A program made the translations under genes and the position numbers. A DNA stretch of 64,000 nucleotides, from positions 4,302-68,301 of the forward strand of contig JAWLEB010000007.1 of assembly GCA_041686375.1 (NCBI GenBank), in the 5' to 3' direction. The notes beneath the pieces are model-generated. The model did not search any database, was not told the DNA's origin, and was given only the letters and a program-made list of their open reading frames with translations. Source of the stretch: Bacteroidales bacterium (GTDB lineage: Bacteria > Bacteroidota > Bacteroidia > Bacteroidales > UBA12077). Below, piece by piece: positions 30,437-47,335 of the stretch (position 1 is its first letter; every line of letters begins with the position of its first letter).

Positions 30437-31381
30437 TTATACAATTATACCTTCGAGTAATGCCGCGACTGCTATCAAAAAATCTGTCGCCAGTACTGCA
30501 ATAACATTCATAGCTAAAGCGGGTACCAGTTTTGGGGTATCATTCCCGTATTTGAAAGCTCCTGTAATTGCTTTAAATGCAAAAGGTACCGGGATTAGAG
30601 CAAGCATAAACCATGGTGAAACTATGTTAAAAAGAGCAGCGCCGATGATCGTTCCAAATGTAGCAAACATACCGCCTGCATAGATATAGGCGGCTTTTTT
30701 TCTACCAAGCCAAATGACCAAATGATTTCGTCCTCCTTCTATATCCGCTTCAACATCTGGAAATTCGTTGATAAGAAGCAATAAAGCGGTAAGTATACCT
30801 GGAGGGATAGACATTAACAGAACGTCTTTTGGGAAAAGTTCAATGACAGACATTCCCGGAGATGCAGTCATCACAACATAACTACCCAGCACAACAAATG
30901 TTCCTAAAGTAAGACCTGCAAAAAGTTCACCTAAGCGAATTTTTGCAAGCAAAGTAGTGTAAAATAATATACTGAAAGCTCCTGATATGGACAACAGGAG
31001 TATTATCCAGTGTACTGTAATAGCAAAATAAATTCCAATTATTGCTGGTATTACGAGGGTTAAAACTGCAGTTCGGTATACATTCTTAGCGCTCAGTTTC
31101 CCTGAACTTAAGACGCCACTGCCACCACTAAAAGGTGTGCGATTGGTTTTATTATCTATTCCTGTTTTATTGTCGGAATATTCGTTAAATAAATTTACGG
31201 AGATATGGGACATTACAACTCCAATGACCAATAAAGCAGCCTTTAGAGGATTAAATGACACTTCCGGTGGATGATATTTCCACCCGAATGCTAAGCCAAT
31301 TGCTACAAGTAATACAGCCAGAAGTAAGAATGGTGCCCGCATTTCTGCCAGCCAAAGTTTTATTTTTTCTTTTTTATTCAT
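30437..31381 (-). CDS. UbiA-family prenyltransferase, MenA-like
   Basis: NLFNEYSD...GID, TPFSGGSG and NEFPDVEAD Asp-rich motifs; about 9 TM helices. Confidence 0.85.
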   Translation of the reverse strand: MNKKEKIKLWLAEMRAPFLLLAVLLVAIGLAFGWKYHPPEVSFNPLKAALLVIGVVMSHISVNLFNEYSDNKTGIDNKTNRTPFSGGSGVLSSGKLSAKNVYRTAVLTLVIPAIIGIYFAITVHWIILLLSISGAFSILFYTTLLAKIRLGELFAGLTLGTFVVLGSYVVMTASPGMSVIELFPKDVLLMSIPPGILTALLLLINEFPDVEADIEGGRNHLVIWLGRKKAAYIYAGGMFATFGTIIGAALFNIVSPWFMLALIPVPFAFKAITGAFKYGNDTPKLVPALAMNVIAVLATDFLIAVAALLEGIIV

Positions 31382-31527
31382 CGAGTTAATTTTTGTAATG
31401 TTGCTTCTAGAAGTTATATGCGTTTGTGTTATTTTAAGTAATGTATTCTCCTGCGCATTTTGATTTATTTCAGTTTTTCAAATAATAACAAATTATTTTA
31501 CGATGTGTTTACTTTCCTGACAAAAAA

Positions 31528-32493
31528 TTATGCTAACCGGTGCACATAAACAGGAATCACTTCAATATCTTTGCTTTTCATGTATTTTCTTACGAATGGT
31601 AAGTCATTAGTAAATCCCAGCAGGAAACCGCCTCCACCTGATCCACAAAGTTTAATATAAAAATCGTTGCTTTCAAGTCCTTTCTCCCAAATTTTCCTGA
31701 ATCCTTCAGGTATCATAGGGTTGAAGTGTTTCATCTGGAATTTAGATAATTGTTTAAGCGATTCGAAAAATTTTTTCCCGTCACCTTCTATTATTGTTTG
31801 AATGGCATGATTGGTGTATGAATTTAAAAGGTCTGCGTCAATACCATTATGATTGCTGTATTTTATCTTTTCCATGAAAATATTGACTAATGGTTCTGTT
31901 TTTCCTTGTTGCCCTGTATTGATTAAAAATACTGCAAACTCAGGCATTAAAGAGGGAAGGTTGATGCTAACAGGTTCTAAAAACTTGGTTTCGCTGACCA
32001 ACAAAGGGCGTTTGAGATAAGAATTTAACGGATCAATACCGCTGCTTGTTCCATGATAGAATGATTCCAGCACAGCAAACTGATCTTTTAATTTAGTCAG
32101 GACATCTGTATTGTTCAGGCTATTGTTATTTTTCCCATCGGCATATTTTTGGTAAAGGGCAGCAACAAGAGCTCCGGAGCTTCCTATGCCATATCCTTCG
32201 GGTATTGTAGATTCAAAATACAGCCCTTTTTTTAAATCGGTGGAAAATGCTTCTATATCAAAATTTACAGGGAGTTGATTTTGTTTTTTGAGCTTTCTTA
32301 AATAACCAAGATAATTGTATAAGCTGAGGTTTGACTGGCGGGCAAAATCATAATCAGTATAATTGTCCTGATAAATGAACTTTAATTCCCCGTTGAAATG
32401 GCTGTAAGGAATGGTTAAAGCCATACTGTTGTTAATAATGGAATATTCCCCAAACAACATTATTTTCGCATAGAAAATATTGCCGCTAGACAT
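31528..32493 (-). CDS. GHMP kinase of the mevalonate pathway (mevalonate-kinase-like)
   Basis: KIMLFGEY, PEGYGIGSSGA, HGTSSGID and KLCGSGGGG motifs; inside the mevalonate cluster. Confidence 0.85.
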   Translation of the reverse strand: MSSGNIFYAKIMLFGEYSIINNSMALTIPYSHFNGELKFIYQDNYTDYDFARQSNLSLYNYLGYLRKLKKQNQLPVNFDIEAFSTDLKKGLYFESTIPEGYGIGSSGALVAALYQKYADGKNNNSLNNTDVLTKLKDQFAVLESFYHGTSSGIDPLNSYLKRPLLVSETKFLEPVSINLPSLMPEFAVFLINTGQQGKTEPLVNIFMEKIKYSNHNGIDADLLNSYTNHAIQTIIEGDGKKFFESLKQLSKFQMKHFNPMIPEGFRKIWEKGLESNDFYIKLCGSGGGGFLLGFTNDLPFVRKYMKSKDIEVIPVYVHRLA

Positions 32494-32519
32494 TATGATT
32501 GTTATTTTTCATGAAACTT

Positions 32520-33638
32520 TTAATGATTATCTATTCGATGTGGTCCTTCTCCCGTGAAATCGTGAATGACCCTACCATTTTCACAATATTGTACTAATGC
32601 TTCATTGATAAACGCCCTGACTTTTTCTTTTGCATCTAGAGGATATATTATATGGACATTAGGTCCGGCATCAAGCGTAAAAGTAACAGGAAGCTTTTGT
32701 TCTTTACGCTGTTTTTGTACCTTTTCAATAATCTCTTTGGTTTCTTTTTCCATGAGGATATAACCGGGATTTGAAGACATCATCAATCCATGCAGCGTCA
32801 GGGCTTCATTTTCCACAATATTTGCAAATTTATTAAAGTTGCCCTCTTTGATTGCTATACGTATCTTGTCTAGATTGTATATTGCCTGGTCAACTCTTGC
32901 TTCTCTGAAAGGATGGTTGTTCATTCTTAAATGTCCCTCAGAGCTGGAATTTTTTTTCTCTTTGGAAGATACTAACAAAATGGAATCCTGCATTGTTTCA
33001 AATATATTACTAATCCTGTGTCCAAAGGGATGAGCAAATTCATCAGATCCATAATCATGTTCACCCCATTCAACTAAATTTCCGTATACTGAACGGCTTG
33101 CGCTGCCCGAGCCAATCCTTGCCATATAAGAGGCCTTTTGATAAAATCTTTCCGGGCTGTATTCCTCCCTTCTAAGGTTATTTTCTATGCTACATAAACA
33201 CAGAGCAAGTGAGCTATATGCTGATGCAGATGAGGCCAAACCTGATGAATGTGGAAAATTGTTGTTGGTTTCGATGTATATATCCATATAAGCTAGAAAA
33301 GGAAAATATTTTCCAATCTGTTTTATATATTTTTTAACCCTTTTGCCAAAAGGATGTTCATCATCATTCCCAAAGCGAAACAGGACAGCTCCGGTTTCAT
33401 GTTTACTTTTTCTATAGTGAATTTCCGTTCTGGTATATAAGTTGCTTAATGTTAAACTCAAGGACGGATTCAGGGGTAATTGGTCGCCTTTTTTGCCCCA
33501 GTATTTGATTAGAGCAATATTAGCAGGCGCTTCCCATGCAACTAATCTGGGAATTTCAGAAATGTTTTCTTTCCCTGTATTCAGTATCTCATCCCTGTAT
33601 TTCTTGTCTAACATGGTTTTATGACTTAATAATTTCAT
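32520..33638 (-). CDS. mvaD: Diphosphomevalonate decarboxylase
   Basis: ANIALIKYWGK, GLASSAS, GSGSASRS and TLDAGPNVH motifs; the start may be 33614. Confidence 0.92.
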   Translation of the reverse strand: MKLLSHKTMLDKKYRDEILNTGKENISEIPRLVAWEAPANIALIKYWGKKGDQLPLNPSLSLTLSNLYTRTEIHYRKSKHETGAVLFRFGNDDEHPFGKRVKKYIKQIGKYFPFLAYMDIYIETNNNFPHSSGLASSASAYSSLALCLCSIENNLRREEYSPERFYQKASYMARIGSGSASRSVYGNLVEWGEHDYGSDEFAHPFGHRISNIFETMQDSILLVSSKEKKNSSSEGHLRMNNHPFREARVDQAIYNLDKIRIAIKEGNFNKFANIVENEALTLHGLMMSSNPGYILMEKETKEIIEKVQKQRKEQKLPVTFTLDAGPNVHIIYPLDAKEKVRAFINEALVQYCENGRVIHDFTGEGPHRIDNH

Positions 33639-34530
33639 CCCACTGGAAAAATATACTTAAGTTATGACGTTCTAAATACTGTTTTAGTTCATTTTTACTT
33701 TTTCTCCATGACAACATTATGAAATCACCCCCCCAGGCACCCAGCCACTTGGCTTTGCCAGGGAAATTGCCCAGTATAGCTTCCCTTGCTTTTTGTTTCA
33801 TTAATAATTTGGACAACAGGGTTTCATGTCTATCTATCTGTACATCAAATTCTTCTATCAATTCACTTTGAAGAATTTTTGTATTAATATCTTTTAATTC
33901 ATTAATGTGTTGTTTTAAAGGAAAATTTTTCCGAAGAAAAGATCTTGCTTCACTTTTTGAATCTTGCTTTTTACCTGTATAAACAAAATAAATATTTTCT
34001 CTGAAAAAGGGGAGCCAGTCAATTTTCTTATATTCCGGTACTCCTGATTGGTTATGGTATAATATTGGCTTATTGCTTTCGGCACAAGCAATATCATATC
34101 CTGAACTTCCTGTTAAGTCCGTATTTAGTTTGAAAGGATCAATATGCAGGCATTTGGCCAGATTGTTTATTAATGTAGAGCTACTTCCCAGACCCCAATG
34201 CAGAGGGAAATCGAGATATGTTTGTATCAGAAGACCGTTTTTTATTGAGATTGAAGTTTGAGAGAATGCTGTTACCATTAAATTTTTGAGGTAATCTGCT
34301 ATATTTTTATCTGTGTATTCAATTATTTCAAAATTGTCAGCAGAAAAACTCCCTTGGAAAATCTTTTTTTGTTGATATGTGGTTTCCCAAATGATTTTGT
34401 TGTCGGGGATGCTATCAATTTTCATATATTGTCCTGTTTTTAAAGGCAGGGCGATAGCCTCACCTCCTTGTAGAACAAGATATTCACCGGTTAGCAAAAG
34501 CTTCCCATTTGAAAAGTATTCACACTTCAT
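33619..34530 (-). CDS. GYDIA-type GHMP kinase (second mevalonate-pathway kinase)
   Basis: GKLLLTGEY, WGLGSSST, SGYDIACA and LGAWGGDF motifs. Confidence 0.85.
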   Translation of the reverse strand: MKCEYFSNGKLLLTGEYLVLQGGEAIALPLKTGQYMKIDSIPDNKIIWETTYQQKKIFQGSFSADNFEIIEYTDKNIADYLKNLMVTAFSQTSISIKNGLLIQTYLDFPLHWGLGSSSTLINNLAKCLHIDPFKLNTDLTGSSGYDIACAESNKPILYHNQSGVPEYKKIDWLPFFRENIYFVYTGKKQDSKSEARSFLRKNFPLKQHINELKDINTKILQSELIEEFDVQIDRHETLLSKLLMKQKAREAILGNFPGKAKWLGAWGGDFIMLSWRKSKNELKQYLERHNLSIFFQWDEIIKS

Positions 34531-35822
34531 GTAATGCTGTTAATATAACTTTCTATATCCCTGTATGAAAAAGGTTTGTTTTGAAAATGCTTTCTCACTT
34601 TTACTTTCTTTTCTTCCTGTATATTGAAGTTCATCAATATATTTTCGAGGTGCAGCTTCATATGTCCTTTCTGTATTCCTGTTGTTATCAGCGACTTTAT
34701 AGCTCCAAAATTATTGGCCAATCCGGCTGCGGCTATAATTTTCATAAGCTCTTTAGCGGACGGGTTGTGTAAAATTTCCAGGGATTGTTTGGCGAGTGGG
34801 TGCAAGTTTGTAAGGCCGCCTACAGAGCCAACAGATAGGGGGATGGATAAGCAGTATGTAAACAATTCATTTGACAGGTTGCATTCCGTCAAAGAGGTAT
34901 AATTTCCCTCTTGTACAGCATAAGCATGGGCTGCACCTTCTACTGCTCTGTAATCGTTTCCCGTGGCCATAACTACTGAATCAATGCCGTTCATTATTCC
35001 TTTGTTATGCGTTACAGCCCTGGAGATATTCTTTTTGGATATTTCTACTGCATTGCAAAATTTTCTGGCAAATTGTTCTCCCTTCATATTTTCATCCACA
35101 TCATCCAGCATAGAAATGGGGCATTCTACTTTCATAGTAATTTTTGAATCCGGGGTATGATTGGAAAGTATCGCCATATTTATTTCCAGGTTATTTCTGT
35201 GGTTCGGGCTTAGTGACTCCTGTAAATATTGAGCAGCTTTTTCCAGGAGGGAGTTAATGAAATTAGCACCCATAGAATCAGCCGTTTCTATGGTAAAATC
35301 CAGCTCAAAATAGTGGGGTATATCAGAAGTTCTGTCATTGAGCTGAATTGATTTAATGCCGCCGCCTCTTTCCTCCATGCGGCTTGTGAAGTAACGTAAA
35401 CTTTCTTTTAATTCGGGAAGTAGTCTTTGGACAATAGTTTTAATTTCCTGATTATTTCCGTACCAGAAGAAATGAATCTGTCCTTTTTTACTAACAGAAA
35501 TGGATTCTGTTTGAAAACCACCCCTGAAATACCAGAATTTCGCACTCTTTGCTGCTGCCGCAACCACAGAGCTTTCTTCTATCACCATTGGTATGTGATA
35601 CACTTTCCCGTCGACTAAAAAATTCGGGGCAATGCCGTACGGTAAATGATAATTGGCTATTGTATTTTCGCTGAAGCTTTCGAGCTTTTGTTGTTCTACT
35701 GAACTTCGGTAACGGCTTTGAGTCAAAGCCTGTGTAAAATATTCAGGTTTTTCTGTAATGGCACCTATTAAGGCTACCTTGCTGTCCCTGTTATATTTAC
35801 TGAATCTTTCTATGAAATGCAT
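34527..35822 (-). CDS. mvaA: Hydroxymethylglutaryl-CoA reductase, class II
   Basis: EESSVVAA, DSMGAN, RAVTHNKGIMNGI and GIQKGHMKLH motifs. Confidence 0.93.
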   Translation of the reverse strand: MHFIERFSKYNRDSKVALIGAITEKPEYFTQALTQSRYRSSVEQQKLESFSENTIANYHLPYGIAPNFLVDGKVYHIPMVIEESSVVAAAAKSAKFWYFRGGFQTESISVSKKGQIHFFWYGNNQEIKTIVQRLLPELKESLRYFTSRMEERGGGIKSIQLNDRTSDIPHYFELDFTIETADSMGANFINSLLEKAAQYLQESLSPNHRNNLEINMAILSNHTPDSKITMKVECPISMLDDVDENMKGEQFARKFCNAVEISKKNISRAVTHNKGIMNGIDSVVMATGNDYRAVEGAAHAYAVQEGNYTSLTECNLSNELFTYCLSIPLSVGSVGGLTNLHPLAKQSLEILHNPSAKELMKIIAAAGLANNFGAIKSLITTGIQKGHMKLHLENILMNFNIQEEKKVKVRKHFQNKPFSYRDIESYINSIT

Positions 35823-35838
35823 TTTTTAAATTATATTG

Positions 35839-36831
35839 TTAAACAACTTTCAGATATGTGTATGCTGTTTTAAGTCCCTGAGCTTGGGCAGATAAGAAAA
35901 ATCTGAGTTTTTCGTAGTCTTCCACAGCATATTCAAGTAAAGCTGATGCCATCCCATACATTGCTGTCGCTTTGCTTTTATTGATTAAGTAATATCCGTC
36001 AAGGAAATTTTTTATTCCACCTGAGATTATAAGGTTTGGAGTATTTTTAATCTTTGTATTCGTAATCAGCTCATTAAGAGTAAAGGTCATCTCTTCTGCA
36101 GTATGTCCTACGAAAGTTAGGGGTTCTAAGTGTGCAGTGGTTTCTGAGCTGTTTCTCCTTAGTTCTACCTTTGCGAAATTTGTGCCTCCCAAAGCTCCAA
36201 ATTCTATAGCGGTCAGCGGAATTTTTAAAAGCTGACTCAGACTTTCCCTTCCCATTCCTTGTCCTACTTCCTTAACAATAACATTGCCGGAAAAATTATT
36301 TACAAACTCCCTGATAGTTTCTATAGGCGGCATTGTAATTCTGTCTCCTTCGGGTTGCATCATTTCCTGTATTGGGTTGACATGTATAACTAATCCGTCT
36401 GTATCGAGTAAGTTGACTAAATCTGTAATGGTTTTGAGGTCATCTTTTTTAAGGAAATGTTCCACTTGCGCAATACCCATGTTTGCATAGAAAGGACGTT
36501 CGTTGCCAATAATATGCCTTAAATTAAAATCAGGCAGGGCTTTTTCATTTTTTAACAGTATACTGCAGGAACCTAACCCCATGCCTAAACCAAATTCAGC
36601 AGCAGCCCTAGCAAGGTGGTGATTGATAGTACCACCCAATTTTGTACCTCCCGTCATGCTGGATATCCAGATTGGCAATTTCATTTCCTTCCCTCCAATT
36701 GAGACAGGAGGTATCTCCTGATCTCGACTTCCCTGAAGAAACGGTTCGTAGCGAAACCGTTCGTCTTTTTGAGAAGCATAAACCTGATTTGTCAGGGCCA
36801 GTGACAAGTGATCTGCTTTTCGGTTTTCCAT
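35839..36831 (-). CDS. fni: Type 2 isopentenyl-diphosphate delta-isomerase (FMN-dependent)
   Basis: RKADHL, SMTGG, HVNPIQE, VKEVGQG and GGTNF motifs. Confidence 0.92.
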   Translation of the reverse strand: MENRKADHLSLALTNQVYASQKDERFRYEPFLQGSRDQEIPPVSIGGKEMKLPIWISSMTGGTKLGGTINHHLARAAAEFGLGMGLGSCSILLKNEKALPDFNLRHIIGNERPFYANMGIAQVEHFLKKDDLKTITDLVNLLDTDGLVIHVNPIQEMMQPEGDRITMPPIETIREFVNNFSGNVIVKEVGQGMGRESLSQLLKIPLTAIEFGALGGTNFAKVELRRNSSETTAHLEPLTFVGHTAEEMTFTLNELITNTKIKNTPNLIISGGIKNFLDGYYLINKSKATAMYGMASALLEYAVEDYEKLRFFLSAQAQGLKTAYTYLKVV

Positions 36832-36882
36832 GTGAATATTACTTTGTTTTAAATATAAGGAAAAAAATAAAACATCAATTCA

Positions 36883-38028
36883 TTAAATGCCTATTTTACG
36901 GGATATAACCATTTTCAGGATTTCTGATGTTCCTTCTCCTATTTGCAGGATTCTTTGGTCTCTGTAAAATCGTTCTATATCGTATTCCTGAAGGAAACCG
37001 TACCCCCCGAAAATTTGTACAGCCTCATCGGCTATTTCCTTTGCTATTTCAGATGTATACAATTTTGCCATAGCTGCTTCTTTGCTAAATTCCTGTCTGT
37101 TTATTTTTAACCAAACTGCATGATAAAGCATATTTTTAGCAGCTTCTATTTTTGTGGCCATTTCTGCTAATTTGAAGGCTATGCTTTGAAATTTACTTAT
37201 CGGTTTACTGAACTGCACACGTTGTTTAGCATAATCTCTCGCCATTTCAAAGGCACCTATTGCTAACCCCAGTCCCATTGCTCCAACAGTCAGTCTACCC
37301 GAATCAAGCGTTTGCAGCATGATTTTGTGCCCTTTCCCTTCTTCACCTAATAAATTTTCTTTAGGAACCTTCACATTGTTAAAAATCAGTTCACCCGTAT
37401 CTGCGGCTCTCCAAACCATTTTATTCCGTATAGGTTTACGAATATAACCTTTTCTGTGTGATTCAACAATTATGGTAGAGTGTTTATTCCTGGATCCTTC
37501 TTTACTTGTTATGGCCTGCACAGTGACACCAGCAGACATTTTTGAGGATGAATTTGATATAAACATTTTAGAACCTTTGATATGCCAATAGCCATTTTTT
37601 AATTGTGCTGTTGTCCTTGTAGATCCACTGTCAGAACCCGCATCCTTTTCGGTAAGCCCGAAGGCCCATGTATTTTCTCCTGAAGTCAGGGGGGGCAAGT
37701 ATCTGAATTTTTGTTTTTCTGTTCCGTATGTTGCTATGGGGCCTATACCTAATGAATTCACTGCAGCAACAGTAGCTGCCTGGGAGCCATCTATCCTTGC
37801 TATCTCCTCTACAGCTATTATCAGTGCCATATAGTCCATACCTTGTCCACCGTATTGTTTTGGTATTGCAATGCCGAATAGACCTTTCTTTCCCATTTTT
37901 TTTGTTAGTTCAGGAGAAAATCGTTCTTCCCGATCCAATTTTCTGGCTTCTGGTTTAATTTCTTCTTCAGCAAATTTTCTGATTTCCTGTCTTAATTTGT
38001 CATGTTTTTCTGATGTGTATAATTGCAT
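36883..38028 (-). CDS. Acyl-CoA dehydrogenase (likely isovaleryl-CoA/short branched-chain, by context)
   Basis: FGLTEKDAGSD, GSKMFISN, QIFGGYG and IGEGTSEI motifs. Confidence 0.88.
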   Translation of the reverse strand: MQLYTSEKHDKLRQEIRKFAEEEIKPEARKLDREERFSPELTKKMGKKGLFGIAIPKQYGGQGMDYMALIIAVEEIARIDGSQAATVAAVNSLGIGPIATYGTEKQKFRYLPPLTSGENTWAFGLTEKDAGSDSGSTRTTAQLKNGYWHIKGSKMFISNSSSKMSAGVTVQAITSKEGSRNKHSTIIVESHRKGYIRKPIRNKMVWRAADTGELIFNNVKVPKENLLGEEGKGHKIMLQTLDSGRLTVGAMGLGLAIGAFEMARDYAKQRVQFSKPISKFQSIAFKLAEMATKIEAAKNMLYHAVWLKINRQEFSKEAAMAKLYTSEIAKEIADEAVQIFGGYGFLQEYDIERFYRDQRILQIGEGTSEILKMVISRKIGI

Positions 38029-38047
38029 ATTCTTTTTATTTGCATCT

Positions 38048-40039
38048 TCAGTGAATAATTGTTTCTATGAGTATCTGACCGTCTTTTACCTGGTCTCCCT
38101 TCTTAACAGCAATATTTTTTATAATCCCGTCACTGTGGGCAATAATGTTATTTTCCATTTTCATGGCTTCAAGCACAAGTAATTTTTGTCCTTTTTTTAC
38201 TTTCATGTTATTTGCTACATTTATTTCTATCACTTTTCCAAACATAGGCGATTTTATTGATTCATGTCCATTATTGCTTTTAAGATTTTCTTGTTTGTTG
38301 TTTATAATATGTTGAAAATCTTCATGTTTCAAGAAATATGTAAAACCCTCAATTGTTACTTCTGTCCAATGATCATCCCTAAAATAATAGTAAACTCTTT
38401 TTCGCTGGTTATCAATCAGGATAGTAAGATAACCGGGATTCTTTTCTATTAGATTTGCTAAGTGTTTTTTCTTTCCTATTTGAAATATCAGTTCCCCTGG
38501 CTTCTTAGTAAATTTAACATCTATTTCTTCCTCTTTCAGTTTAATGCGCCATTTCATAAGGTGACGCCAGTAACCAATATGTTGAAAAGCCTGTTCAATT
38601 GAATTTTCAGGATTTTGATTGATAGTATGAATAAAAATATAGGACGCAATGATAATCCCTCTGTCAATGGCTGACTGTTTGCTTTTGGTTTGTGTCACTA
38701 GCTGAGGATTATATTGATCTATATAATTTGTGGAAATATTGTTTTTCAAAAATGCATTACTTGTGATAATTTCCCTGATATATAGAATATTATGTCTGAT
38801 TCCTGAAATTATGAAGTGTCGTAGTTCATTAGCAAGAACAGATATTGCATTTTCCCTGTAATTCTTCCATAATATTGCTTTAGCAATCATTGGATCATAA
38901 TCAGGAGGAATAATGTCTCCTGTCTGGATTCCTGTTTCTATTCTTATATTGGAAGTTTGAGGTATTATTAAATTTTGAATTTTCCCGGGAGAAGGCGTGA
39001 AATTATTTTCAGGATCTTCAGCATAAATTCTTGCCTCAATGGCATGTCCTGTCTTCTGGATCTGAGACTGATTCCATCTCAGCACCTGGTGTTGAGCTAT
39101 GCGGATTTGCTCTTCGACTATATCTTTTCCTGTAATCATCTCTGTTACTGGATGTTCTACCTGAATCCTTGTGTTCATCTCAAGAAAAAAGAAGTTGTCT
39201 TCATTATCTACCATGAATTCAATCGTTCCAGCATTTGAATAGTCTATAGCCTCGGCTATTTGAAGAGCTGCATTGGTCAATTTTTTTCTTAGTTTTTCAT
39301 TCACGGAAGGAGAGGGGGCTTCTTCTATAATTTTCTGATGTCTTCGTTGAACACTACACTCTCGTTCAAATAAATGAATATAATTTCCAAAATGGTCACC
39401 GAGTAATTGTATTTCAATATGACGCGGATTTTCAATATATTTTTCCACATATACATCATTGTTTCCGAAATAATTGTTTGCCTCTCTTGCTGTCTGGATA
39501 ATGTCTTTTTTTAAACCGGAAGGATCTCTGACTATTCGCATTCCTTTGCCACCTCCACCTGCTGCGGCTTTTACCATTACCGGAAATTCTGATTCAGATA
39601 CTTGAGCAACTATTTCATCCGGACTACCTGTATACATTTCTAAAATGGGTATATTCAAAGCTGAGACAAATTTTCCAGCCTGAATTTTATTACCCATGGT
39701 TTGTATAGCCTTAACACCGGGTCCAATGAATACAATATTGTTTTCATTGCATTGAGTGGCAAAGTCTGCATTTTCTGATAAAAATCCGTATCCGGGATGA
39801 ATGGCATCTATCTCGTTCTTAATGGCAATTTGTACTATTTTGTTAATGTTTAGGTAGGTTTCGGCCAGGCTGCCACTTCCCAAAAAATATGCCTCATCTG
39901 CGAGCTTTACATGCAGAGCATGATTGTCCTGCTCTGTATAGATAGCAACGGTCCGCACACCCATTTTTCTGGCTGTCCGGATAATTCTTATGGCTATTTC
40001 ACCTCTGTTTGCAATCAGTACTTTTGAAAAAGTTTTCAT
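38048..40039 (-). CDS. 3-methylcrotonyl-CoA carboxylase alpha subunit (biotin carboxylase + BCCP; LiuD-like)
   Basis: ANRGEIA, HPGYGFLSEN, GGGGKGMR, EMNTRIQVEH and C-terminal biotinylation motif EAMKM. Confidence 0.88.
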   Translation of the reverse strand: MKTFSKVLIANRGEIAIRIIRTARKMGVRTVAIYTEQDNHALHVKLADEAYFLGSGSLAETYLNINKIVQIAIKNEIDAIHPGYGFLSENADFATQCNENNIVFIGPGVKAIQTMGNKIQAGKFVSALNIPILEMYTGSPDEIVAQVSESEFPVMVKAAAGGGGKGMRIVRDPSGLKKDIIQTAREANNYFGNNDVYVEKYIENPRHIEIQLLGDHFGNYIHLFERECSVQRRHQKIIEEAPSPSVNEKLRKKLTNAALQIAEAIDYSNAGTIEFMVDNEDNFFFLEMNTRIQVEHPVTEMITGKDIVEEQIRIAQHQVLRWNQSQIQKTGHAIEARIYAEDPENNFTPSPGKIQNLIIPQTSNIRIETGIQTGDIIPPDYDPMIAKAILWKNYRENAISVLANELRHFIISGIRHNILYIREIITSNAFLKNNISTNYIDQYNPQLVTQTKSKQSAIDRGIIIASYIFIHTINQNPENSIEQAFQHIGYWRHLMKWRIKLKEEEIDVKFTKKPGELIFQIGKKKHLANLIEKNPGYLTILIDNQRKRVYYYFRDDHWTEVTIEGFTYFLKHEDFQHIINNKQENLKSNNGHESIKSPMFGKVIEINVANNMKVKKGQKLLVLEAMKMENNIIAHSDGIIKNIAVKKGDQVKDGQILIETIIH

Positions 40040-40815
40040 TCTGGTTTTCTTTTTTCCAGGAATGATTTCATTCCTTCTTGTCCTTCCTTACTAATTCTGG
40101 CTTTTGAGATCAAATCTATTGTTTTTGTCTTTATTCCTTCATAGTCAGGTTGTTTTGTTATGGTGTTAATGAGTTGTTTAGTCTGTATCACTGATTTTTG
40201 ACTATTATTATTTACTTCATTTAATACCAATTCTAATTGATTTTCAATTTCTTTTGTTTCTCCGGCATAATTTACCAGTCCTATGCGAAGGGCATCTTTT
40301 GAATTGAATGATTGCCCTGTTAGCATATAATATTTTGCAGAAAATTCTCCCATGCGTTTAATTATAAAAGGTGCGATTGTTGCAGGAATAAGTCCGAGCT
40401 TTACTTCAGAAAAGCTGAATCTTGATTTTTTTTCAGCAAAAACTATATCCGATGCTGCCAGCAGCCCGTTTGCCCCGCCAATACAAGCACCATGAACTAC
40501 TGAAATGGTAAGACATGGCAGGTTGTATAACTTTTCGAATAACTCATATAGTTTCCTGCTCCCATCATAGTTTTCTGCATACGTATTGTTAATGCTGGTT
40601 TTCATCCAGTTTAGATCAGCACCCGCACTAAAGTCATTACCATTGCCCTGGATAATTATTGCTTTAACACTTTCAGATTTTTTTATTTTGTCGAATAGCT
40701 CATGCAATTCCTCTATCATTGTTTCATTAAGCGCATTACGAACTTCAGGACGATTGAAGGTAATTGTCCCGGTTTGTTTTTCATCTTTATATTCGATGGT
40801 TCCAAAATGATTCAT
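40036..40815 (-). CDS. Enoyl-CoA hydratase family, methylglutaconyl-CoA hydratase (LiuC-like)
   Basis: NRPEVRNALN, FSAGADLNWM, SEVKLGLIPATIAP and EGQEGMKSFLEKR motifs; lies between the MCC subunits. Confidence 0.88.
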   Translation of the reverse strand: MNHFGTIEYKDEKQTGTITFNRPEVRNALNETMIEELHELFDKIKKSESVKAIIIQGNGNDFSAGADLNWMKTSINNTYAENYDGSRKLYELFEKLYNLPCLTISVVHGACIGGANGLLAASDIVFAEKKSRFSFSEVKLGLIPATIAPFIIKRMGEFSAKYYMLTGQSFNSKDALRIGLVNYAGETKEIENQLELVLNEVNNNSQKSVIQTKQLINTITKQPDYEGIKTKTIDLISKARISKEGQEGMKSFLEKRKPE

Positions 40816-40841
40816 AATTCGTGGTTTTGATTGTTTTTTTG

Positions 40842-42449
40842 CTACATCCGGAAAACTCCGTTTTGAGGTCTTCCATAAGGAGCATTTCGTGATACAGCAA
40901 TCCCTATTCCGAGGACTTTTCTTGTATCTGTGGGATCGATGATTCCATCATCCCAAATTCGTGAAGTACTGTAATATGCTGAGCTCTCGTGTTCATATTT
41001 TTTAAGCATCTCTGTTTTGAAATGCTCTACTTTGTCTGTATTGATTTCCTTACCAGACTTTTTGAGTTGTGCTTTTTTTATTGATGTCAGGACACTGGCC
41101 GCTTGTTCCCCTCCCATAACAGATATTTTGGCATTAGGCCAGGTAAACAATAATCCTGGATCGAATGCCCGTCCTGCCATAGCATAATTGCCTGCACCAA
41201 ATGAACCGCCAAATATTATAGTAAACTTTGGAACATTTGCATTGGCAACAGCGTGTATAAGTTTTGCTCCATCTCTGGCAATGCCTCCGTGTTCATATTT
41301 TTTTCCCACAATAAAACCTGATATATTCTGTAAGAAAACAAGAGGGATGTTTCTGTATTTACATAGCTCTATGAAATGTGCAGCTTTTCTCGCTGTTTCT
41401 CCATAGATTACCCCGTTATTGGCTATGACTCCTGCCGGATATCCCATTATTCTGGCAAATCCTGTAACAATGTTTGTTCCGTAGTCCTTTTTAAATTCCC
41501 TTAATTTACTGCCATCCACAATACGCATGATAATTTCCCTGACATTAACTTCTTTTTTTAAATCTACAGGCGCCAGTCCATATAAATCATCAGGGTTGTA
41601 TAATGGTTCTTCAGGTTTGGTAATGTCTAAAGGCTGTTTGTTTGATTTTGGCAGTCGTGAAAAAATATCCCTGCAAATTTCGATAGCATCCAGGTCATCT
41701 TCTGCAATGTGATCGGCCAGACCTGAAATTTGCGTGTGTACTTCAGCGCCTCCAAGCTCTTCGTCTGTAACTTCTTCACCTGTTGCTGCTTTAACCAACG
41801 GTGGTCCTCCTATGAAAATTGTTCCCTGATTACGTACAATAATGGATTCATCGCTCATGGCAGGGATATACGCACCTCCAGCCGTACACGATCCCATTAC
41901 TATTGAAATCTGTGGAACACCCATTGAAGATAGTTTTGCCTGATTGCGGAATAATCGACCAAAGTCTTCTTTGTCAGGGAAAACTTTGGATTGCTCAGGT
42001 AGAAAGACTCCACCACTGTCAACCATATAAATCACCGGAAGATTATATTCCATAGCGATCACCTGTGCACGAACATGTTTTTTGATGGTTTCCTGAACAT
42101 ATGTTCCCCCTTTGACTGTAGCATCATTGACTATTATTACAGTCTCTTTGTTCTGAACAACTCCTATTCCTGTAACTATCCCGGCTGATGGAAAAGCATT
42201 GTCATATTGCTCGTATGCAGCTAATGGGGAAAGTTCAAGAAAGGGTGTTCCCGGGTCGACAAGTTTTTCAATACGTTCACGAGGTAAAAGCTTTCCACGT
42301 TCTCTGTGTTTTGCCACTGCTTTGTCACCTCCACTTTTATAAACCTTCTTGAGTTTTTTCCGATAATCTTCAAGAATTGACAAATACCGCTCCTTATCTT
42401 TTTGGAAATCAAAGGACTGAGTATCAAGATATGTTTTTAATTGGCTCAA
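40842..42449 (-). CDS. 3-methylcrotonyl-CoA carboxylase beta (carboxyltransferase; LiuB-like)
   Basis: NDATVKGGTY, GSCTAGGAYIPAM, GGSFGAGNYAM, WDDGIIDP and C-terminal GVFRM; TTG start. Confidence 0.9.
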   Translation of the reverse strand: MSQLKTYLDTQSFDFQKDKERYLSILEDYRKKLKKVYKSGGDKAVAKHRERGKLLPRERIEKLVDPGTPFLELSPLAAYEQYDNAFPSAGIVTGIGVVQNKETVIIVNDATVKGGTYVQETIKKHVRAQVIAMEYNLPVIYMVDSGGVFLPEQSKVFPDKEDFGRLFRNQAKLSSMGVPQISIVMGSCTAGGAYIPAMSDESIIVRNQGTIFIGGPPLVKAATGEEVTDEELGGAEVHTQISGLADHIAEDDLDAIEICRDIFSRLPKSNKQPLDITKPEEPLYNPDDLYGLAPVDLKKEVNVREIIMRIVDGSKLREFKKDYGTNIVTGFARIMGYPAGVIANNGVIYGETARKAAHFIELCKYRNIPLVFLQNISGFIVGKKYEHGGIARDGAKLIHAVANANVPKFTIIFGGSFGAGNYAMAGRAFDPGLLFTWPNAKISVMGGEQAASVLTSIKKAQLKKSGKEINTDKVEHFKTEMLKKYEHESSAYYSTSRIWDDGIIDPTDTRKVLGIGIAVSRNAPYGRPQNGVFRM

Positions 42450-42479
42450 ATTTAAATTTGGTTTAAATTAATATTATAG

Positions 42480-42520
42480 ATTAACAGATAGTAAAACGCT
42501 TTTGTTTAATATCTGTTAAT
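42480..42520. promoter_or_regulatory. Inverted repeat upstream of the liu-mva cluster
   Basis: Perfect 11-bp arms, ATTAACAGATA-N19-TATCTGTTAAT. Confidence 0.4.
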
Positions 42521-42834
42521 GAAGAGAAAAGTTAAATGTACAGGCAAATTTTTTTATCTGTTTTGAGAGATTTTTTATACTAACTGTTTTGATGCGACAG
42601 GATATTCTGAAAGAATCAATTAGTATGACAATCAGGTATCCCGGGAATTTATCAAAAAAAGCATTCAAAAGGCATAGCTTTTATCTCAATTCTTGTGAAA
42701 TCTCATGTTTCTCATTTTGTCAGGGGCATAGATAAAAGGTAATATTTGTCAGAAATATTTGAATACAATCCGATTTATCTTTAACTTGCTTTTTGTAAAA
42801 AGTGTTAATTGTTAGACTTTTATTGGGCTGTGTA

Positions 42835-46303: not shown

Positions 46304-47335
46304 TTAGAGTTTCTCGTCAAAATAGTGGGTAATCTTTTCCATTAAATGAATACGGTCTTTGCCTCTTACATTGTGTTTCTGTTTCGGATATGTAAAAAAG
46401 TCTATCTGCACATCTTCTTTGATGCATTCTCCGAGAAACGTCAGACTATGCTGAGATACTACTACATTATCCATATATCCGCTTATAATGAGTAAATCGC
46501 CCTCTATGTCAGTAACATAATTTTTTAAATCAGCATTTTCATAACCTTCCGGATTTTGTTCAGGTGTGTCCATGTATCGTTCTCCATACATGATTTCGTA
46601 AAAATTCCAATCTATAACCGGCCCCCCTGCAACACCTACCTTCAAAGTTTCGGGCTCTTTCGTCATTTTTTCTGTTTTGAGGTTATCAACATTTAGCTTA
46701 TACAAGTGACTTTCGAGTGGCGATTCTTATGTTGATACATAATATAAGTGTTTCCCATTTTCATCAAACTGCGTAGAATTTTCTACAACTTCCCATTCAC
46801 CTTCTGTTAATTGTTCTAGTTGTCTACCATCTGTGGTATACAAATATATGTGGTTATATCCGTCCTTCCGGCTGTGCCAGATAAACTTTTCTTTGTCCCC
46901 GGGCAAAAATTCAATAGGAGAAAGCGGTTCAACATATTTATCATTATTTTCTTCAAACAATGTTTTTTCAAAAGGATTGAGTTTGTAAACAGAATTATTA
47001 TGGGAGAAAGAAAACAAGGTTTCATCAAGCCAGTTAGTGCTTGGTAAATCTTCCAAAGCATCTTCCTCATCTAAATCACTTATTTTATTGAGCTCTTTCA
47101 GTGTGATAAGGGTATCTGTCTTATTTGACTTTGCAGAGGAGGTGAATAATGCATCATCCTTCTGGAATATGTAGAAATTTGATTCCGGAATCCAGTTTAG
47201 CTGTGGAATATTTTCAGCAGCTAGTGAAGTCCATTGACCCATTACCGCTTCTTTTATTGATAACTCTTTGTCCTGAGCGGTTACTTCTGTTATGACAATT
47301 GAAAGTATAAGAAAAGGAAAGAATAGCTTTTTCAT
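46304..47335 (-). pseudogene. Dipeptidyl-peptidase IV (S9B) pseudogene with two internal deletions and one in-frame stop
   Basis: The two ORFs share one frame, separated by TAA at 46727-46729 (VST*ESPLESHLY). Signal peptide, DGYNHIYLY and GVAGGPVIDW..YGERYMDTP remain; the GxSxGG catalytic motif is absent. Confidence 0.85.

Follow-up and report, generated by a model that had tools for sequence, protein, structure and literature searches.

On the minus strand of the 64,000-nucleotide stretch analysed here (the window), the ORF list places nine co-oriented genes between positions 42449 and 31528, and, 146 nt further on, the gene of a UbiA-family prenyltransferase. The order is MCC-beta, LiuC-like hydratase, MCC-alpha, acyl-CoA dehydrogenase (ACAD), IDI-2, class II HMG-CoA reductase (HMGR), GYDIA kinase, MvaD and MVK-like kinase, with spacers, calculated from ORF coordinates, of 26, −4, 19, 51, 16, −4, −20 and 26 nt. 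This layout, including the position of UbiA, matches exactly the one described in an earlier sequence-only reading. All ten ORFs are full length and free of stops.

Table 1. Genes and intergenic features of the liu-mva cluster
Feature	Coordinates	Strand	Evidence
MCC-beta (3-methylcrotonyl-CoA carboxylase carboxyltransferase subunit), 535 aa, TTG start	40842..42449	-	PF01039 490 bits
LiuC/AtuE-like crotonase-fold hydratase, 259 aa	40036..40815	-	PF00378 167 bits
MCC-alpha, 663 aa	38048..40039	-	Biotin_carb_N, CPSase_L_D2, Biotin_carb_C, Biotin_lipoyl (BC + BCCP)
Acyl-CoA dehydrogenase, SCAD/Bcd type, 381 aa	36883..38028	-	Three ACAD domains
ACAD-IDI2 spacer, 51 nt, with TATATTTA	36832..36882	-	Sequence read
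Type 2 IPP isomerase (IDI-2), 330 aa	35839..36831	-	TIGR02151 191.8 bits
Class II HMG-CoA reductase, 431 aa	34527..35822	-	PF00368 284.7 bits
GYDIA-family GHMP kinase, 303 aa	33619..34530	-	NF040656 283.7 bits
MvaD (diphosphomevalonate decarboxylase), 372 aa	32520..33638	-	TIGR01240 185.2 bits; MVD-like_N + MDD_C domains
MVK-like GHMP kinase, 321 aa	31528..32493	-	TIGR00549 56.3 bits; GHMP_kinases_N domain
UbiA-family prenyltransferase, putative MenA paralogue, 314 aa	30437..31381	-	PF01040 80.9 bits
Divergent intergenic region, AT-rich, 352 nt, upstream of MCC-beta; presumed promoter region	42450..42801	.	Sequence read

Enzymes and expression of the cluster

Compared with PDB sequences (phmmer), the MCC-beta protein scored 657.7 bits with its human counterpart and 657.3 bits with that of P. 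aeruginosa, versus 482.9 bits with GCC-beta and less than 300 with PCC, scores that clearly assign it to the MCC type. MCC-alpha carries an EAMKM biotinylation motif at residue 626. The hydratase remained under the cut-off of its top NCBIfam model (PRK05674, 210 bits, cut-off 426), and its PDB matches include AtuE (4zu2, 120 bits). In one relative (G027), whose liu operon includes a lyase-like gene, the hydratase gene has the equivalent place, and the present enzyme is presumably a 3-methylglutaconyl-CoA hydratase. For the dehydrogenase step of the Liu pathway, which the sequence-only reading had placed here, an ACAD is indeed present, but not a canonical isovaleryl-CoA dehydrogenase (LiuA/IVD). 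An IVD assignment was rejected because its best PDB matches are SCAD/Bcd enzymes (340–278 bits; IVDs reach 211–229 bits) and because a C-terminal GEGT motif contains the catalytic Glu. A 59% identical orthologue is found in the G027 liu operon, beside a lyase-like gene, and the enzyme is likely to oxidise isovaleryl-CoA. EtfAB, a FadE-type ACAD and an Fe-S oxidoreductase are encoded on another contig (C10). The genome yielded no dedicated branched-chain keto-acid dehydrogenase, and its sole E1 alpha/beta complex scores as PDH.

In the mevalonate half, TIGR02151 is the only family match of IDI-2, under its cut-off of 281.3 bits, and the location of the gene beside HMGR is conserved in relatives. 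The top NCBIfam model of HMGR is TIGR00532 ('degradative'), at 256.2 bits narrowly under the cut-off of 259.95. The protein scores 403.9 bits with PDB 7n7s and contains the ENT, DSMGAN, NKG, GND, VGG and KGHM stretches; a truncated paralogue lies on contig C80. The GYDIA kinase, a predicted phosphomevalonate kinase, exceeds its family cut-off (225), has the GYDIA motif at residue 144, and adjoins HMGR in most Bacteroidia loci. MvaD also passes its cut-off (171.35). The last GHMP kinase does not reach the TIGR00549 cut-off (163); its place after MvaD is conserved in relatives, and it would be the mevalonate kinase.

UbiA had been read as MenA-like and linked to menaquinone. It scores 68.5 bits on TIGR00751 (MenA), under the cut-off of 102, whereas a protein on contig C21 reaches 121 bits. 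By these scores the cluster UbiA is a MenA paralogue and the real MenA is on C21, so that the menaquinone link loses its support. Source annotations call the UbiA homologues 'prenyltransferase' or MenA.

The two halves are separated by the ACAD-IDI2 spacer, in which the weak −7-like element TATATTTA, noted previously at 36850–36857, is found on the minus strand (36857–36850). No promoter was assigned in the 352-nt divergent region upstream of MCC-beta; the promoter scan used a sigma-70 model, and Bacteroidota promoters are outside its coverage. A minus-strand scan detected no terminator-like site in any cluster spacer, including this junction, which measures 51 nt here versus approximately 10–12 nt in four relatives (L039, L040, L042 and L043). 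Four metatranscriptome libraries from a single study contain short contigs that match both halves at 99% identity or more, with possible DNA carry-over. Among the matches listed, none bridged the junction, and one RNA contig turns unlike the cluster at 36872. The liu and mva halves may be expressed as a single transcript.

HMG-CoA enzymes in the genome and its relatives

The host is a sediment Bacteroidales-like bacterium, whose genome is 98.07% complete in 109 contigs, so that a missing gene could fall in a gap. HMG-CoA synthase (mvaS) was not detected in this genome, either with profiles (TIGR01835, PF01154, PF08540) or in a tblastn search that used a synthase from Bacteroidia (best E 1.9); the only matches to synthase models were weak, in ORFs of FabH/FabF size. 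Neither was HMG-CoA lyase (NF004283, PF00682; tblastn with a same-order lyase, best E 0.8). The only ORF matched by the lyase profiles, of 608 aa, appears to be of the oxaloacetate-decarboxylase/pyruvate-carboxylase type. Thiolase was likewise not found by profile search or tblastn (best E 1.8); the only thiolase-model matches, of 38 and 26 bits, were in two ORFs of 339 and 419 aa, taken as probable FabH/FabF types. The absence of synthase, lyase and thiolase, pointed out before for the cluster, thus extends to the nearly complete genome. However, the MEP enzymes Dxr, IspG and IspH, sought along with mvaS and lyase, are present. This makes the cluster a second route to IPP, parallel to MEP, and it would be auxiliary and dispensable.

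HMGR is present in 20 of 41 genomes of relatives. No convincing synthase was found in these 20 (best E 9.3e-11, FabH-like by region and ORF length), the synthase model exceeded its cut-off in none of the 41, and of the 20 only G027 has a lyase-like gene. Absence of thiolase is not conserved: the enzyme is encoded in 7 of the 13 relatives within the order that carry the cluster or HMGR.

Linkage of the liu and mva genes is conserved. Seven of 16 relatives' loci have the full nine-gene order, three more have the same order minus MCC-alpha, and the arrangement is shared by three families within the order, which is beyond chance. A closed genome from another family of the order (G282) carries the complete nine-gene series in unchanged order, as well as Dxr; synthase and lyase were both not found in it. 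Among 80 metagenome loci, liu genes lie directly upstream of HMGR in four, and a synthase is nearby in one. UbiA follows the cluster in 7/16 relatives' loci and in metagenome locus L101.

Other arrangements exist. In G027, MCC-beta, hydratase, MCC-alpha and ACAD are followed by the lyase-like gene, which indicates that the ACAD belongs in a liu operon and that the mevalonate block occupies the lyase's place in the present cluster. The liu and mva genes are apart in G027 and in G035. MCC-beta is found in 6 of 21 HMGR-negative relatives, two of which (G001, G011) have it on cut-off contigs of 2.5–3.4 kb. The G014 cluster is decayed, with only fragments of liu genes and with MvaD and MVK gone, and the HMGR match of G007 has an in-frame TGA. 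Outside the order, Dxr is absent from all 44 HMGR-positive Bacteroidia genomes, 26 of which likewise gave no synthase match; of 19 loci examined from other orders, none had liu genes next to HMGR.

A proposed leucine-fed mevalonate route and its alternatives

We consider it reasonably likely that the cluster is an anabolic Liu-mevalonate operon feeding isoprenoid synthesis. Isovaleryl-CoA, derived from leucine/alpha-ketoisocaproate or from isovalerate, would be converted to 3-methylcrotonyl-CoA by the SCAD/Bcd-type ACAD, with electrons passing to an EtfAB system encoded elsewhere. The biotin- and ATP-dependent MCC (alpha and beta) would then form 3-methylglutaconyl-CoA, and the LiuC-like crotonase HMG-CoA. 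From there, HMGR would produce mevalonate, the MVK-like and GYDIA kinases would phosphorylate it twice, decarboxylation by MvaD would yield IPP, and IDI-2 would convert IPP to DMAPP. As the carboxyl added by MCC is the one removed by MvaD, the five carbons of isovaleryl-CoA would form the isoprene unit, at a cost of 4 ATP and 2 NAD(P)H per IPP. In addition to its usual MEP route, the bacterium would probably make isoprenoid units out of the leucine skeleton, plausibly as an auxiliary supply when peptides or isovalerate are abundant. The genome appears to encode no other recognisable HMG-CoA producer (synthase) or consumer (lyase), and we infer flux through the route, and its end products, from gene content. 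The proposal of the sequence-only reading, that Liu enzymes replace thiolase and synthase and meet the mevalonate half at HMG-CoA, withstood the genomic checks, but only as a route beside MEP.

Several points count against this explanation: the sub-cut-off scores of hydratase, IDI-2, MVK-like kinase and HMGR, the non-canonical ACAD, the lack of a dedicated keto-acid dehydrogenase among the genes identified, the presence of MEP, decay in G014, the in-frame TGA in the HMGR match of G007, MCC-beta in HMGR-negative relatives, separation in G027 and G035, the 51-nt junction with its −7-like element, bridged by none of the RNA contigs listed, and an assembly in 109 contigs.

It could be, although this is rather unlikely, that the same chemistry provides precursor only for a specialised prenylated product of the adjacent UbiA, as in a BGC, and not for isoprenoids in general. 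Housekeeping needs are already met by MEP, making the cluster dispensable, and its UbiA, which is not the housekeeping MenA, recurs after the cluster in relatives and in L101. However, it stands 146 nt off here, and 1.9 kb off in G008, with an opposite-strand cyclase gene between, and searches of the g2, f11 and f21 loci did not find it next to the cluster. In G008 and G014, a redoxin gene and a KAS III-like gene come after UbiA, but these do not adjoin it in the window, and the cluster showed neither a terpene synthase nor a polyprenyl synthase.

An association of two independent modules is improbable. The mva genes would then salvage mevalonate or use an unrecognised HMG-CoA-forming enzyme (a KAS III/thiolase-fold paralogue), and the liu genes would belong to another acyl-CoA pathway. 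The −7-like element in the spacer is consistent with this, but the short junction of four relatives is not. Against the separated genes of G027 and G035, and MCC-beta without HMGR in G032, G033 and G039, stands the nine-gene order common to three families. The ACAD is of a generic SCAD/Bcd type and the hydratase is under its family cut-off, yet MCC-beta is of the type whose product pathway ends at HMG-CoA, and, without lyase, HMGR is the only encoded HMG-CoA consumer. Another source of HMG-CoA may exist in the class, given the 26 other-order genomes without synthase, and G008 and G014 have a KAS III-like gene close to UbiA; in the present genome, however, synthase- and thiolase-model matches are weak and in ORFs of FabH/FabF size.

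That the cluster is a decaying relic, without current function in this genome, seems very unlikely. Ten intact ORFs with conserved motifs, orthologues intact in most relatives, and near-identical fragments of both halves in RNA libraries argue against it, despite the decayed G014 cluster, the in-frame stop in G007 HMGR, the truncated HMGR paralogue on C80, and a MEP route that renders the cluster dispensable. Finally, an Aib-like reverse flow, from HMG-CoA or mevalonate to isovaleryl-CoA priming iso-fatty acids, is hardly credible: Bcd-type dehydrogenases can work reductively, isovaleryl-CoA is the primer of Bacteroidota iso-fatty acids, and the top HMGR model is 'degradative', but what the cluster contains is an ATP-grasp biotin carboxylase with BCCP, not an AibA/B-type decarboxylase, no HMG-CoA synthase is there to provide HMG-CoA, and two kinases, MvaD and IDI-2 would draw mevalonate irreversibly to IPP.

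Comparison with known systems

The leucine-fed mevalonate operon that we favour resembles two kinds of bacterial clusters. With Liu operons, such as liuABCDE of Pseudomonas, a leucine/isovalerate utilisation operon, or that of G027, it shares MCC beta and alpha, a LiuC-type crotonase and an ACAD leading to HMG-CoA, and the order of these four genes is identical in G027. It differs by its SCAD/Bcd-type rather than LiuA/IVD dehydrogenase, and by having IDI-2, HMGR, two kinases and MvaD in place of the lyase. With thiolase missing from the genome, no energy-yielding catabolism of leucine is encoded. With the class II mevalonate clusters of Bacteroidia, it shares HMGR (44–50% identical to that of other orders of the class), GYDIA kinase, MvaD, MVK-like kinase and IDI-2. 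Unlike other bacterial mevalonate clusters, it has no synthase or thiolase, liu genes are fused upstream, and MEP coexists.

Myxobacteria retain HMG-CoA synthase (MvaS). In these bacteria, isovaleryl-CoA, dimethylacrylyl-CoA, 3-methylglutaconyl-CoA and HMG-CoA join leucine catabolism to the mevalonate pathway, and labelled dimethylacrylate entered a sesquiterpene while 13C2-acetate did not (PMC7321100, PMC5389471). As presented in the portions of these papers used here, the Aib decarboxylase runs the link backwards and no fused liu-mva operon is described, whereas in the present cluster the synthase is absent and the link would be hard-wired in one cluster.

In trypanosomatids, leucine is converted to HMG-CoA via IVDH and MCC and on to sterols, bypassing acetyl-CoA, and lyase activity was inferred by the authors to be effectively absent; that route is eukaryotic and mitochondrial, its genes are dispersed, and an acetyl-CoA route through thiolase and HMGS also runs (PMC5993337). 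For the archaeon Calditenuis (Caldarchaeia), leucine catabolism feeding HMG-CoA for isoprenoid lipids is a proposal based on genome and proteome; there, an alternative mevalonate pathway (Pmd + Ipk) is the only isoprenoid route, and an operon fusion is not described in the corresponding part of the paper (PMC12979851). A leucine-to-isoprenoid link has thus already been described for myxobacteria and trypanosomatids, and proposed for one archaeon; here it would be encoded in one fused cluster that does without the synthase.

The nine-gene cluster and its enzymes

The stretch studied (C7:4302-68301) belongs to an assembly of 3.26 Mb in 109 contigs, 98.07% complete with 1.87% contamination. On its minus strand, the ORF list of the window gives ten ORFs in succession from 42449 to 30437: four leucine-catabolic (liu) genes, five mevalonate (mva) genes and a UbiA-family gene. 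The sequence-only reading had claimed the nine-gene cluster and its spacers, and both agree exactly with the ORF list, from whose coordinates the distances below were calculated, and with the family scans.

Cluster genes in order of transcription, and other features with their locations. Spacers are in nt to the following gene, scores and cut-offs in bits.
Feature	Location (strand)	Spacer	Model, score	Cut-off	Remark
Nine-gene cluster	42449-31528 (-)				
Carboxyltransferase (MCC-beta)		26	PF01039, 490		
Crotonase (hydratase)		-4	PRK05674 (top model), 210	426	under
MCC-alpha		19			biotin carboxylase + BCCP; four domains; EAMKM at residue 626
Acyl-CoA dehydrogenase (ACAD)		51			
IDI-2		16	TIGR02151, 191.8	281.3	under; sole family match, no Pfam match
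Class II HMG-CoA reductase (HMGR)		-4	PF00368, 284.7; TIGR00532, 256.2	27; 259.95	slightly under on TIGR00532
GYDIA-family GHMP kinase (phosphomevalonate kinase slot)		-20	GYDIA family, 283.7	225	NCBIfam type 'hypoth_equivalog'
MvaD, diphosphomevalonate decarboxylase		26	TIGR01240, 185.2	171.35	over
Second GHMP kinase (mevalonate kinase slot, MVK)		146	TIGR00549, 56.3	163	under
Cluster UbiA gene			TIGR00751, 68.5	102	
UbiA-family gene on C21	C21		TIGR00751, 121.2	102	
Third UbiA-family gene	C23:28904-29878 (L065:3905-4879, -)		NF009512, 240.9	278	
Second HMGR-like gene	C80, L028:2910-4070 (+)				386 aa
Adjacent peptidase-like ORFs	46304-47335 (-)				133 + 202 aa
Redoxin and KAS III-like genes, G008	L031:1281-3139 (-)				
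Redoxin and KAS III-like genes, G014	L034:6965-8834 (+)				
Decayed cluster, G014	L034 (G014:C106:1-11373)				

The carboxylase encoded by the MCC-beta and MCC-alpha genes is, by its sequence, of the 3-methylcrotonyl-CoA carboxylase type. Against PDB structures MCC-beta scored 657.7 and 657.3 bits with the human and Pseudomonas MCC-beta subunits, 482.9 with GCC-beta and at most 295 with PCC; its best match was 9tps (698 bits), labelled PCC-beta by its depositors. A geranyl-CoA carboxylase (Atu) identity was dismissed because MCC structures outscore GCC by 175 bits for MCC-beta. The EAMKM stretch of MCC-alpha is the biotinylation (biotinyl-lysine) motif. The hydratase occupies a position orthologous to that of the hydratase in the liu operon of a relative, G027. 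HMGR scored 403.9 bits with structure 7n7s and retains the conserved class II stretches. The MVK-like kinase keeps its place after MvaD in relatives. Two flanking genes were not counted in the cluster, since they are retained in the closest relatives only (hyp327 in L029 and L030, Zn-ADH in L029 alone, among 17 loci). Elsewhere in the window, two adjacent ORFs each give a partial match to a DPP-IV/S9 peptidase (Peptidase_S9 positions 82-210 and DPPIV_N positions 223-300), and the pair has the appearance of a peptidase gene that is truncated or interrupted.

The dehydrogenase did not bear out a LiuA-type identity. SCAD and butyryl-CoA dehydrogenase structures (340-278 bits) outscore isovaleryl-CoA dehydrogenases (IVDs; 211-229 bits), and the protein carries the Glu within the C-terminal GEGT motif, a position at which, to our knowledge, IVDs have no Glu. 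By these comparisons it is not a canonical isovaleryl-CoA dehydrogenase. In G027, the MCC-beta, hydratase, MCC-alpha and ACAD genes stand in identical order, with an ACAD 59% identical to that of the window and a lyase-like gene about 80 nt further on, while HMGR-GYDIA-MvaD-MVK sit on a different contig. This gene order, with its lyase-like gene, indicates that a SCAD-type dehydrogenase does belong in a classical catabolic liu operon, and that in the lineage of the window the mevalonate block fills the position of the lyase.

An identity of the cluster UbiA protein as the genome's MenA, with a link to menaquinone, was dismissed: the protein falls below the cut-off of the MenA equivalog TIGR00751 and the C21 protein scores higher, so the cluster gene is better described, from its sequence, as a MenA paralogue. 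Its homologues in public sources are named 'prenyltransferase', or MenA by automatic annotation. The genome holds three UbiA-family genes, and the third, on C23, resembles an archaeal-type geranylgeranylglycerol-phosphate geranylgeranyltransferase. In two relatives, G008 and G014, the MenA-like UbiA gene has two genes after it, one of the redoxin family (197 aa) and one KAS III-like (362-363 aa), and the three may together serve to make a prenylated product; within the window, redoxin and KAS III-like genes do not adjoin UbiA.

Predicted formation and use of HMG-CoA in the genome

Whole-genome searches upheld the predicted lack of mvaS and of HMG-CoA lyase. For HMG-CoA synthase, TIGR01835, PF01154 and PF08540 gave no match at E≤1 in this 98.07% complete genome, and tblastn with a query from another Bacteroidia genome gave a best E of 1.9. 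The lyase models NF004283 and PF00682 matched a single 608-aa ORF, taken to be a putative oxaloacetate-decarboxylase/pyruvate-carboxylase-type protein, and tblastn with a same-order lyase reached E 0.8 at best. Thiolase searches of the genome found mere 38- and 26-bit matches, in 339- and 419-aa ORFs taken to be putative FabH/FabF-type proteins; with a same-genus thiolase as tblastn query the best E was 1.8. As no synthase, thiolase or lyase was found, the Liu enzymes are the sole recognisable producer of HMG-CoA and the reductase its sole encoded consumer.

The MEP pathway is also encoded, with Dxr (479 bits), IspG (441) and IspH (226) all over their cut-offs. The presence of these enzymes means that the supply of IPP does not depend on the cluster. 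Thus the Liu-fed mevalonate core of the sequence-only reading is supported, but not as the organism's sole source of IPP; altogether that interpretation stands in its core and is amended on four points.

We consider it fairly probable that isoprenoid units are made here by a leucine/isovalerate-fed mevalonate route, whose substrates, direction, flux and products we infer from the observed gene identities, absences and conserved linkage. The ACAD would convert isovaleryl-CoA to 3-methylcrotonyl-CoA and pass electrons to EtfAB, encoded on C10 beside a FadE-type dehydrogenase and an Fe-S oxidoreductase. MCC, with ATP and bicarbonate, would then yield 3-methylglutaconyl-CoA, the hydratase HMG-CoA, and HMGR mevalonate. 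Mevalonate would proceed through mevalonate-5-P to mevalonate-5-PP, from which MvaD would form IPP, and IDI-2 would convert IPP to DMAPP. In the established chemistry of such steps, C1 of mevalonate stems from the carboxyl that MCC adds, and MvaD takes off this same carbon, so that the isovaleryl skeleton would stay intact. In Bacteroidota, iso-fatty acids are usually primed with isovaleryl-CoA. Of E1 alpha/beta 2-oxoacid dehydrogenases the genome has one, which scores as PDH, and this search turned up no source of isovaleryl-CoA.

Contig C80 (6 kb) carries a second HMGR-like gene, along with a T9SS sorting domain that is consistent with Bacteroidota. The product of this gene is 49% identical to the cluster HMGR, breaks off before reaching the C-terminal KGHM stretch, and shows changes in its conserved motifs; a normal reductase function is improbable. 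The gene adjoins an IS3 transposase gene, and similar second copies occur in G003-G006.

Conservation and expression of the cluster

Linkage of liu and mva genes and absence of mvaS were looked for in relatives, and both were found. The set comprised 41 related genomes, our own included; the one near relative that has a name is a MAG under the label Bacteroidales bacterium, whose HMGR is 70% identical. HMGR was present in 20 of the 41, and Dxr in 40, among them every HMGR-bearing genome. No genome had an HMG-CoA synthase over the cut-off (0/41): the best match in HMGR-positive genomes had E 9.3e-11, none was convincing in any of the 20, and by matched region and ORF length these matches look FabH-like. 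A lyase-like gene was found in G027 and G040 only.

Gene order was read in 16 loci fetched around HMGR. The full order, MCC-beta to MVK, was found in seven, six from the same genus and one (G034) from another family. Three loci, all of genus g2, have this order minus MCC-alpha, and two end at a contig edge with the visible part fitting the full order. One, in G014, has liu genes as fragments only and lacks MvaD and MVK. The remaining three carry HMGR-GYDIA-MvaD-MVK alone (G027, G035 and G036, the contig of G036 being too short for judging). Over the 41 genomes, HMGR and MCC-beta occur together in 17, HMGR alone in 3 (G004, G007, G014), MCC-beta alone in 6 and neither in 15; in two of the MCC-beta-only genomes, G001 and G011, the gene is on cut-off contigs of 2.5-3.4 kb.

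Some individual loci had features of their own. The decayed cluster of G014, in the same genus, has an adenylate-cyclase-domain gene on the opposite strand in place of MvaD and MVK, and L037 (G007:C121) has an in-frame TGA within the HMGR match. In an HMGR-negative relative, L045 (G033:C342) contains a 355-aa HMGS-like ORF (E 2.1e-31) that shares its contig with an ORF of 735 aa bearing an HMGL-like domain; these may belong to a biosynthetic cassette, for beta-branching or another purpose, that has no connection with mevalonate.

At the liu-mva junction, 51 nt separate ACAD and IDI-2 in the window, versus about 10-12 nt in L039, L040, L042 and L043, a distance too short to hold a promoter of its own for IDI-2 in the latter four loci. 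A sigma-70 promoter scan of the window (63 sites versus 44.6 ± 6.3 expected) is not informative on Bacteroidota promoters. The terminator scan gave 11 sites versus 9.7 ± 3.3 expected, with no terminator-like site in the spacers of the cluster.

DNA of the window was present in three freshwater-sediment runs of one study, among which the source run may be included. From another study, four salt-lake metatranscriptome runs contained short contigs that match the MCC-beta, MCC-alpha, hydratase, ACAD, IDI-2, HMGR, MvaD and UbiA genes at 99% identity or more. These contigs give no strand, level or transcript ends and may include DNA carry-over, so that they hint only weakly at expression of both halves. 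Positions 33906-34773 had zero contig cover in all four runs, and no contig among those listed spans 36832-36882. Two joints in run X4, 31376>38282 and 31381>37704, have 20-letter sides with other letters in between, and look like assembly chimeras. In run X6 one contig matches as far as 36872, at a distance of 41 nt before IDI-2 begins, and continues with 57 unlike A/G-rich letters; the break may mark a chimeric join or the end of a transcript. The RNA contigs count neither for nor against co-transcription of liu and mva.

In a phylum sample of 401 high-quality genomes, one more same-order genome with HMGR was found: G282, closed, 4.9 Mb, of a third family. It has the nine genes in the same order as the window, with no synthase and no lyase detected, and carries Dxr and a thiolase. 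The noted lack of thiolase alongside synthase and lyase thus holds for our genome but is not a conserved trait, because 7 of the 13 same-order genomes examined that bear the cluster or HMGR carry one. Around HMGR in the best 80 metagenome loci, liu genes were directly upstream in 4 and a synthase nearby in 1.

HMGR was also found in 44 genomes of other orders of the class (sample G051-G434), all 44 without Dxr. A synthase match (TIGR01835, E≤1e-25) was obtained in 18 and none in 26, in a survey that scored just the 4 leading candidates in some genomes, so that some synthases may have escaped; with PF01154 at E≤0.1, no credible match appeared in the four of these 26 that were re-checked, two of them closed. 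MCC-beta-like genes (44-48% identity) occur in 41 of the 44 (also given as 42 of 45 genomes), solitary in 10 of the 11 loci examined, and were left out of the evidence. A lyase-like gene was present in all 10 other-order genomes examined, and liu genes adjoined HMGR in none of 19 loci examined. It seems to us less likely than not that Bacteroidia without HMG-CoA synthase generally use the Liu module as their 'upper mevalonate pathway'. If they did, the many Flavobacteriales-like genomes with HMGR and without Dxr or a detectable synthase would draw all isoprenoids from the leucine/alpha-ketoisocaproate branch; isovaleryl-CoA, which also primes iso-fatty acids there, would feed undecaprenyl phosphate, menaquinone and carotenoids, and the fused operon of the window would be the arrangement that makes the Liu-fed route visible.

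Comparison with known isoprenoid routes

According to textbooks, bacteria build isoprenoids either by the MEP pathway, from pyruvate plus glyceraldehyde-3-phosphate, or by the mevalonate pathway, which consumes three acetyl-CoA. The gene content here speaks for a third starting point, the C5 skeleton of an amino acid: among the encoded enzymes, only leucine-catabolic ones could make HMG-CoA, only the reductase could use it, and both sets are fused in a conserved cluster. If the leucine/isovalerate-fed route is real, it would be an operon-level bacterial case of a route labelled so far in myxobacteria and trypanosomatids, and metagenome annotation would score 'incomplete' mevalonate pathways differently. 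It would account for a way in which sediment Bacteroidales that degrade proteins might spare carbon and avoid the oxygen-sensitive Fe-S steps of MEP, and would offer a compact nine-gene cassette from isovalerate or leucine to isoprenoids. It also raises the question of how many MEP-less Bacteroidia without HMG-CoA synthase make HMG-CoA, for which the Liu route is one candidate.

Full-text searches over the main text of freely available papers turned up neither a bacterial liu-mva operon nor HMGS-less Bacteroidia, and excerpts of PMC3199775 and PMC9803151 contained nothing relevant. A review from 2026 on the diversity of isoprenoid pathways in bacteria, as excerpted, mentions neither leucine nor Bacteroides-type cases, and states that most Legionella are without HmgS (PMC13001223). 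Excerpts of other sources describe related links. Labelling documents the use of leucine-derived HMG-CoA for isoprenoids in myxobacteria, where a sesquiterpene took up dimethylacrylate-d6 but not 13C2-acetate (PMC7321100), and this use is documented in trypanosomatids too (PMC5993337). For the archaeon Calditenuis it was put forward on genomic and proteomic grounds (PMC12979851).

In the myxobacterial Aib route, as excerpted, a decarboxylase drives the link between leucine and mevalonate in reverse (PMC5389471). That route has an AibA/B-type 3-methylglutaconyl-CoA decarboxylase and MvaS, whereas the cluster has an ATP-dependent biotin carboxylase and MvaS was not found in the genome. The Liu pathway ends in HMG-CoA lyase (LiuE), which was found neither in our genome nor in G282, and the classical upper half of the mevalonate pathway uses acetoacetyl-CoA thiolase and HMG-CoA synthase, neither of which was found in our genome. 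We rate as new four features taken together: fusion at the level of an operon, a synthase and a lyase that are both lost, MEP present alongside, and Bacteroidales-like hosts.
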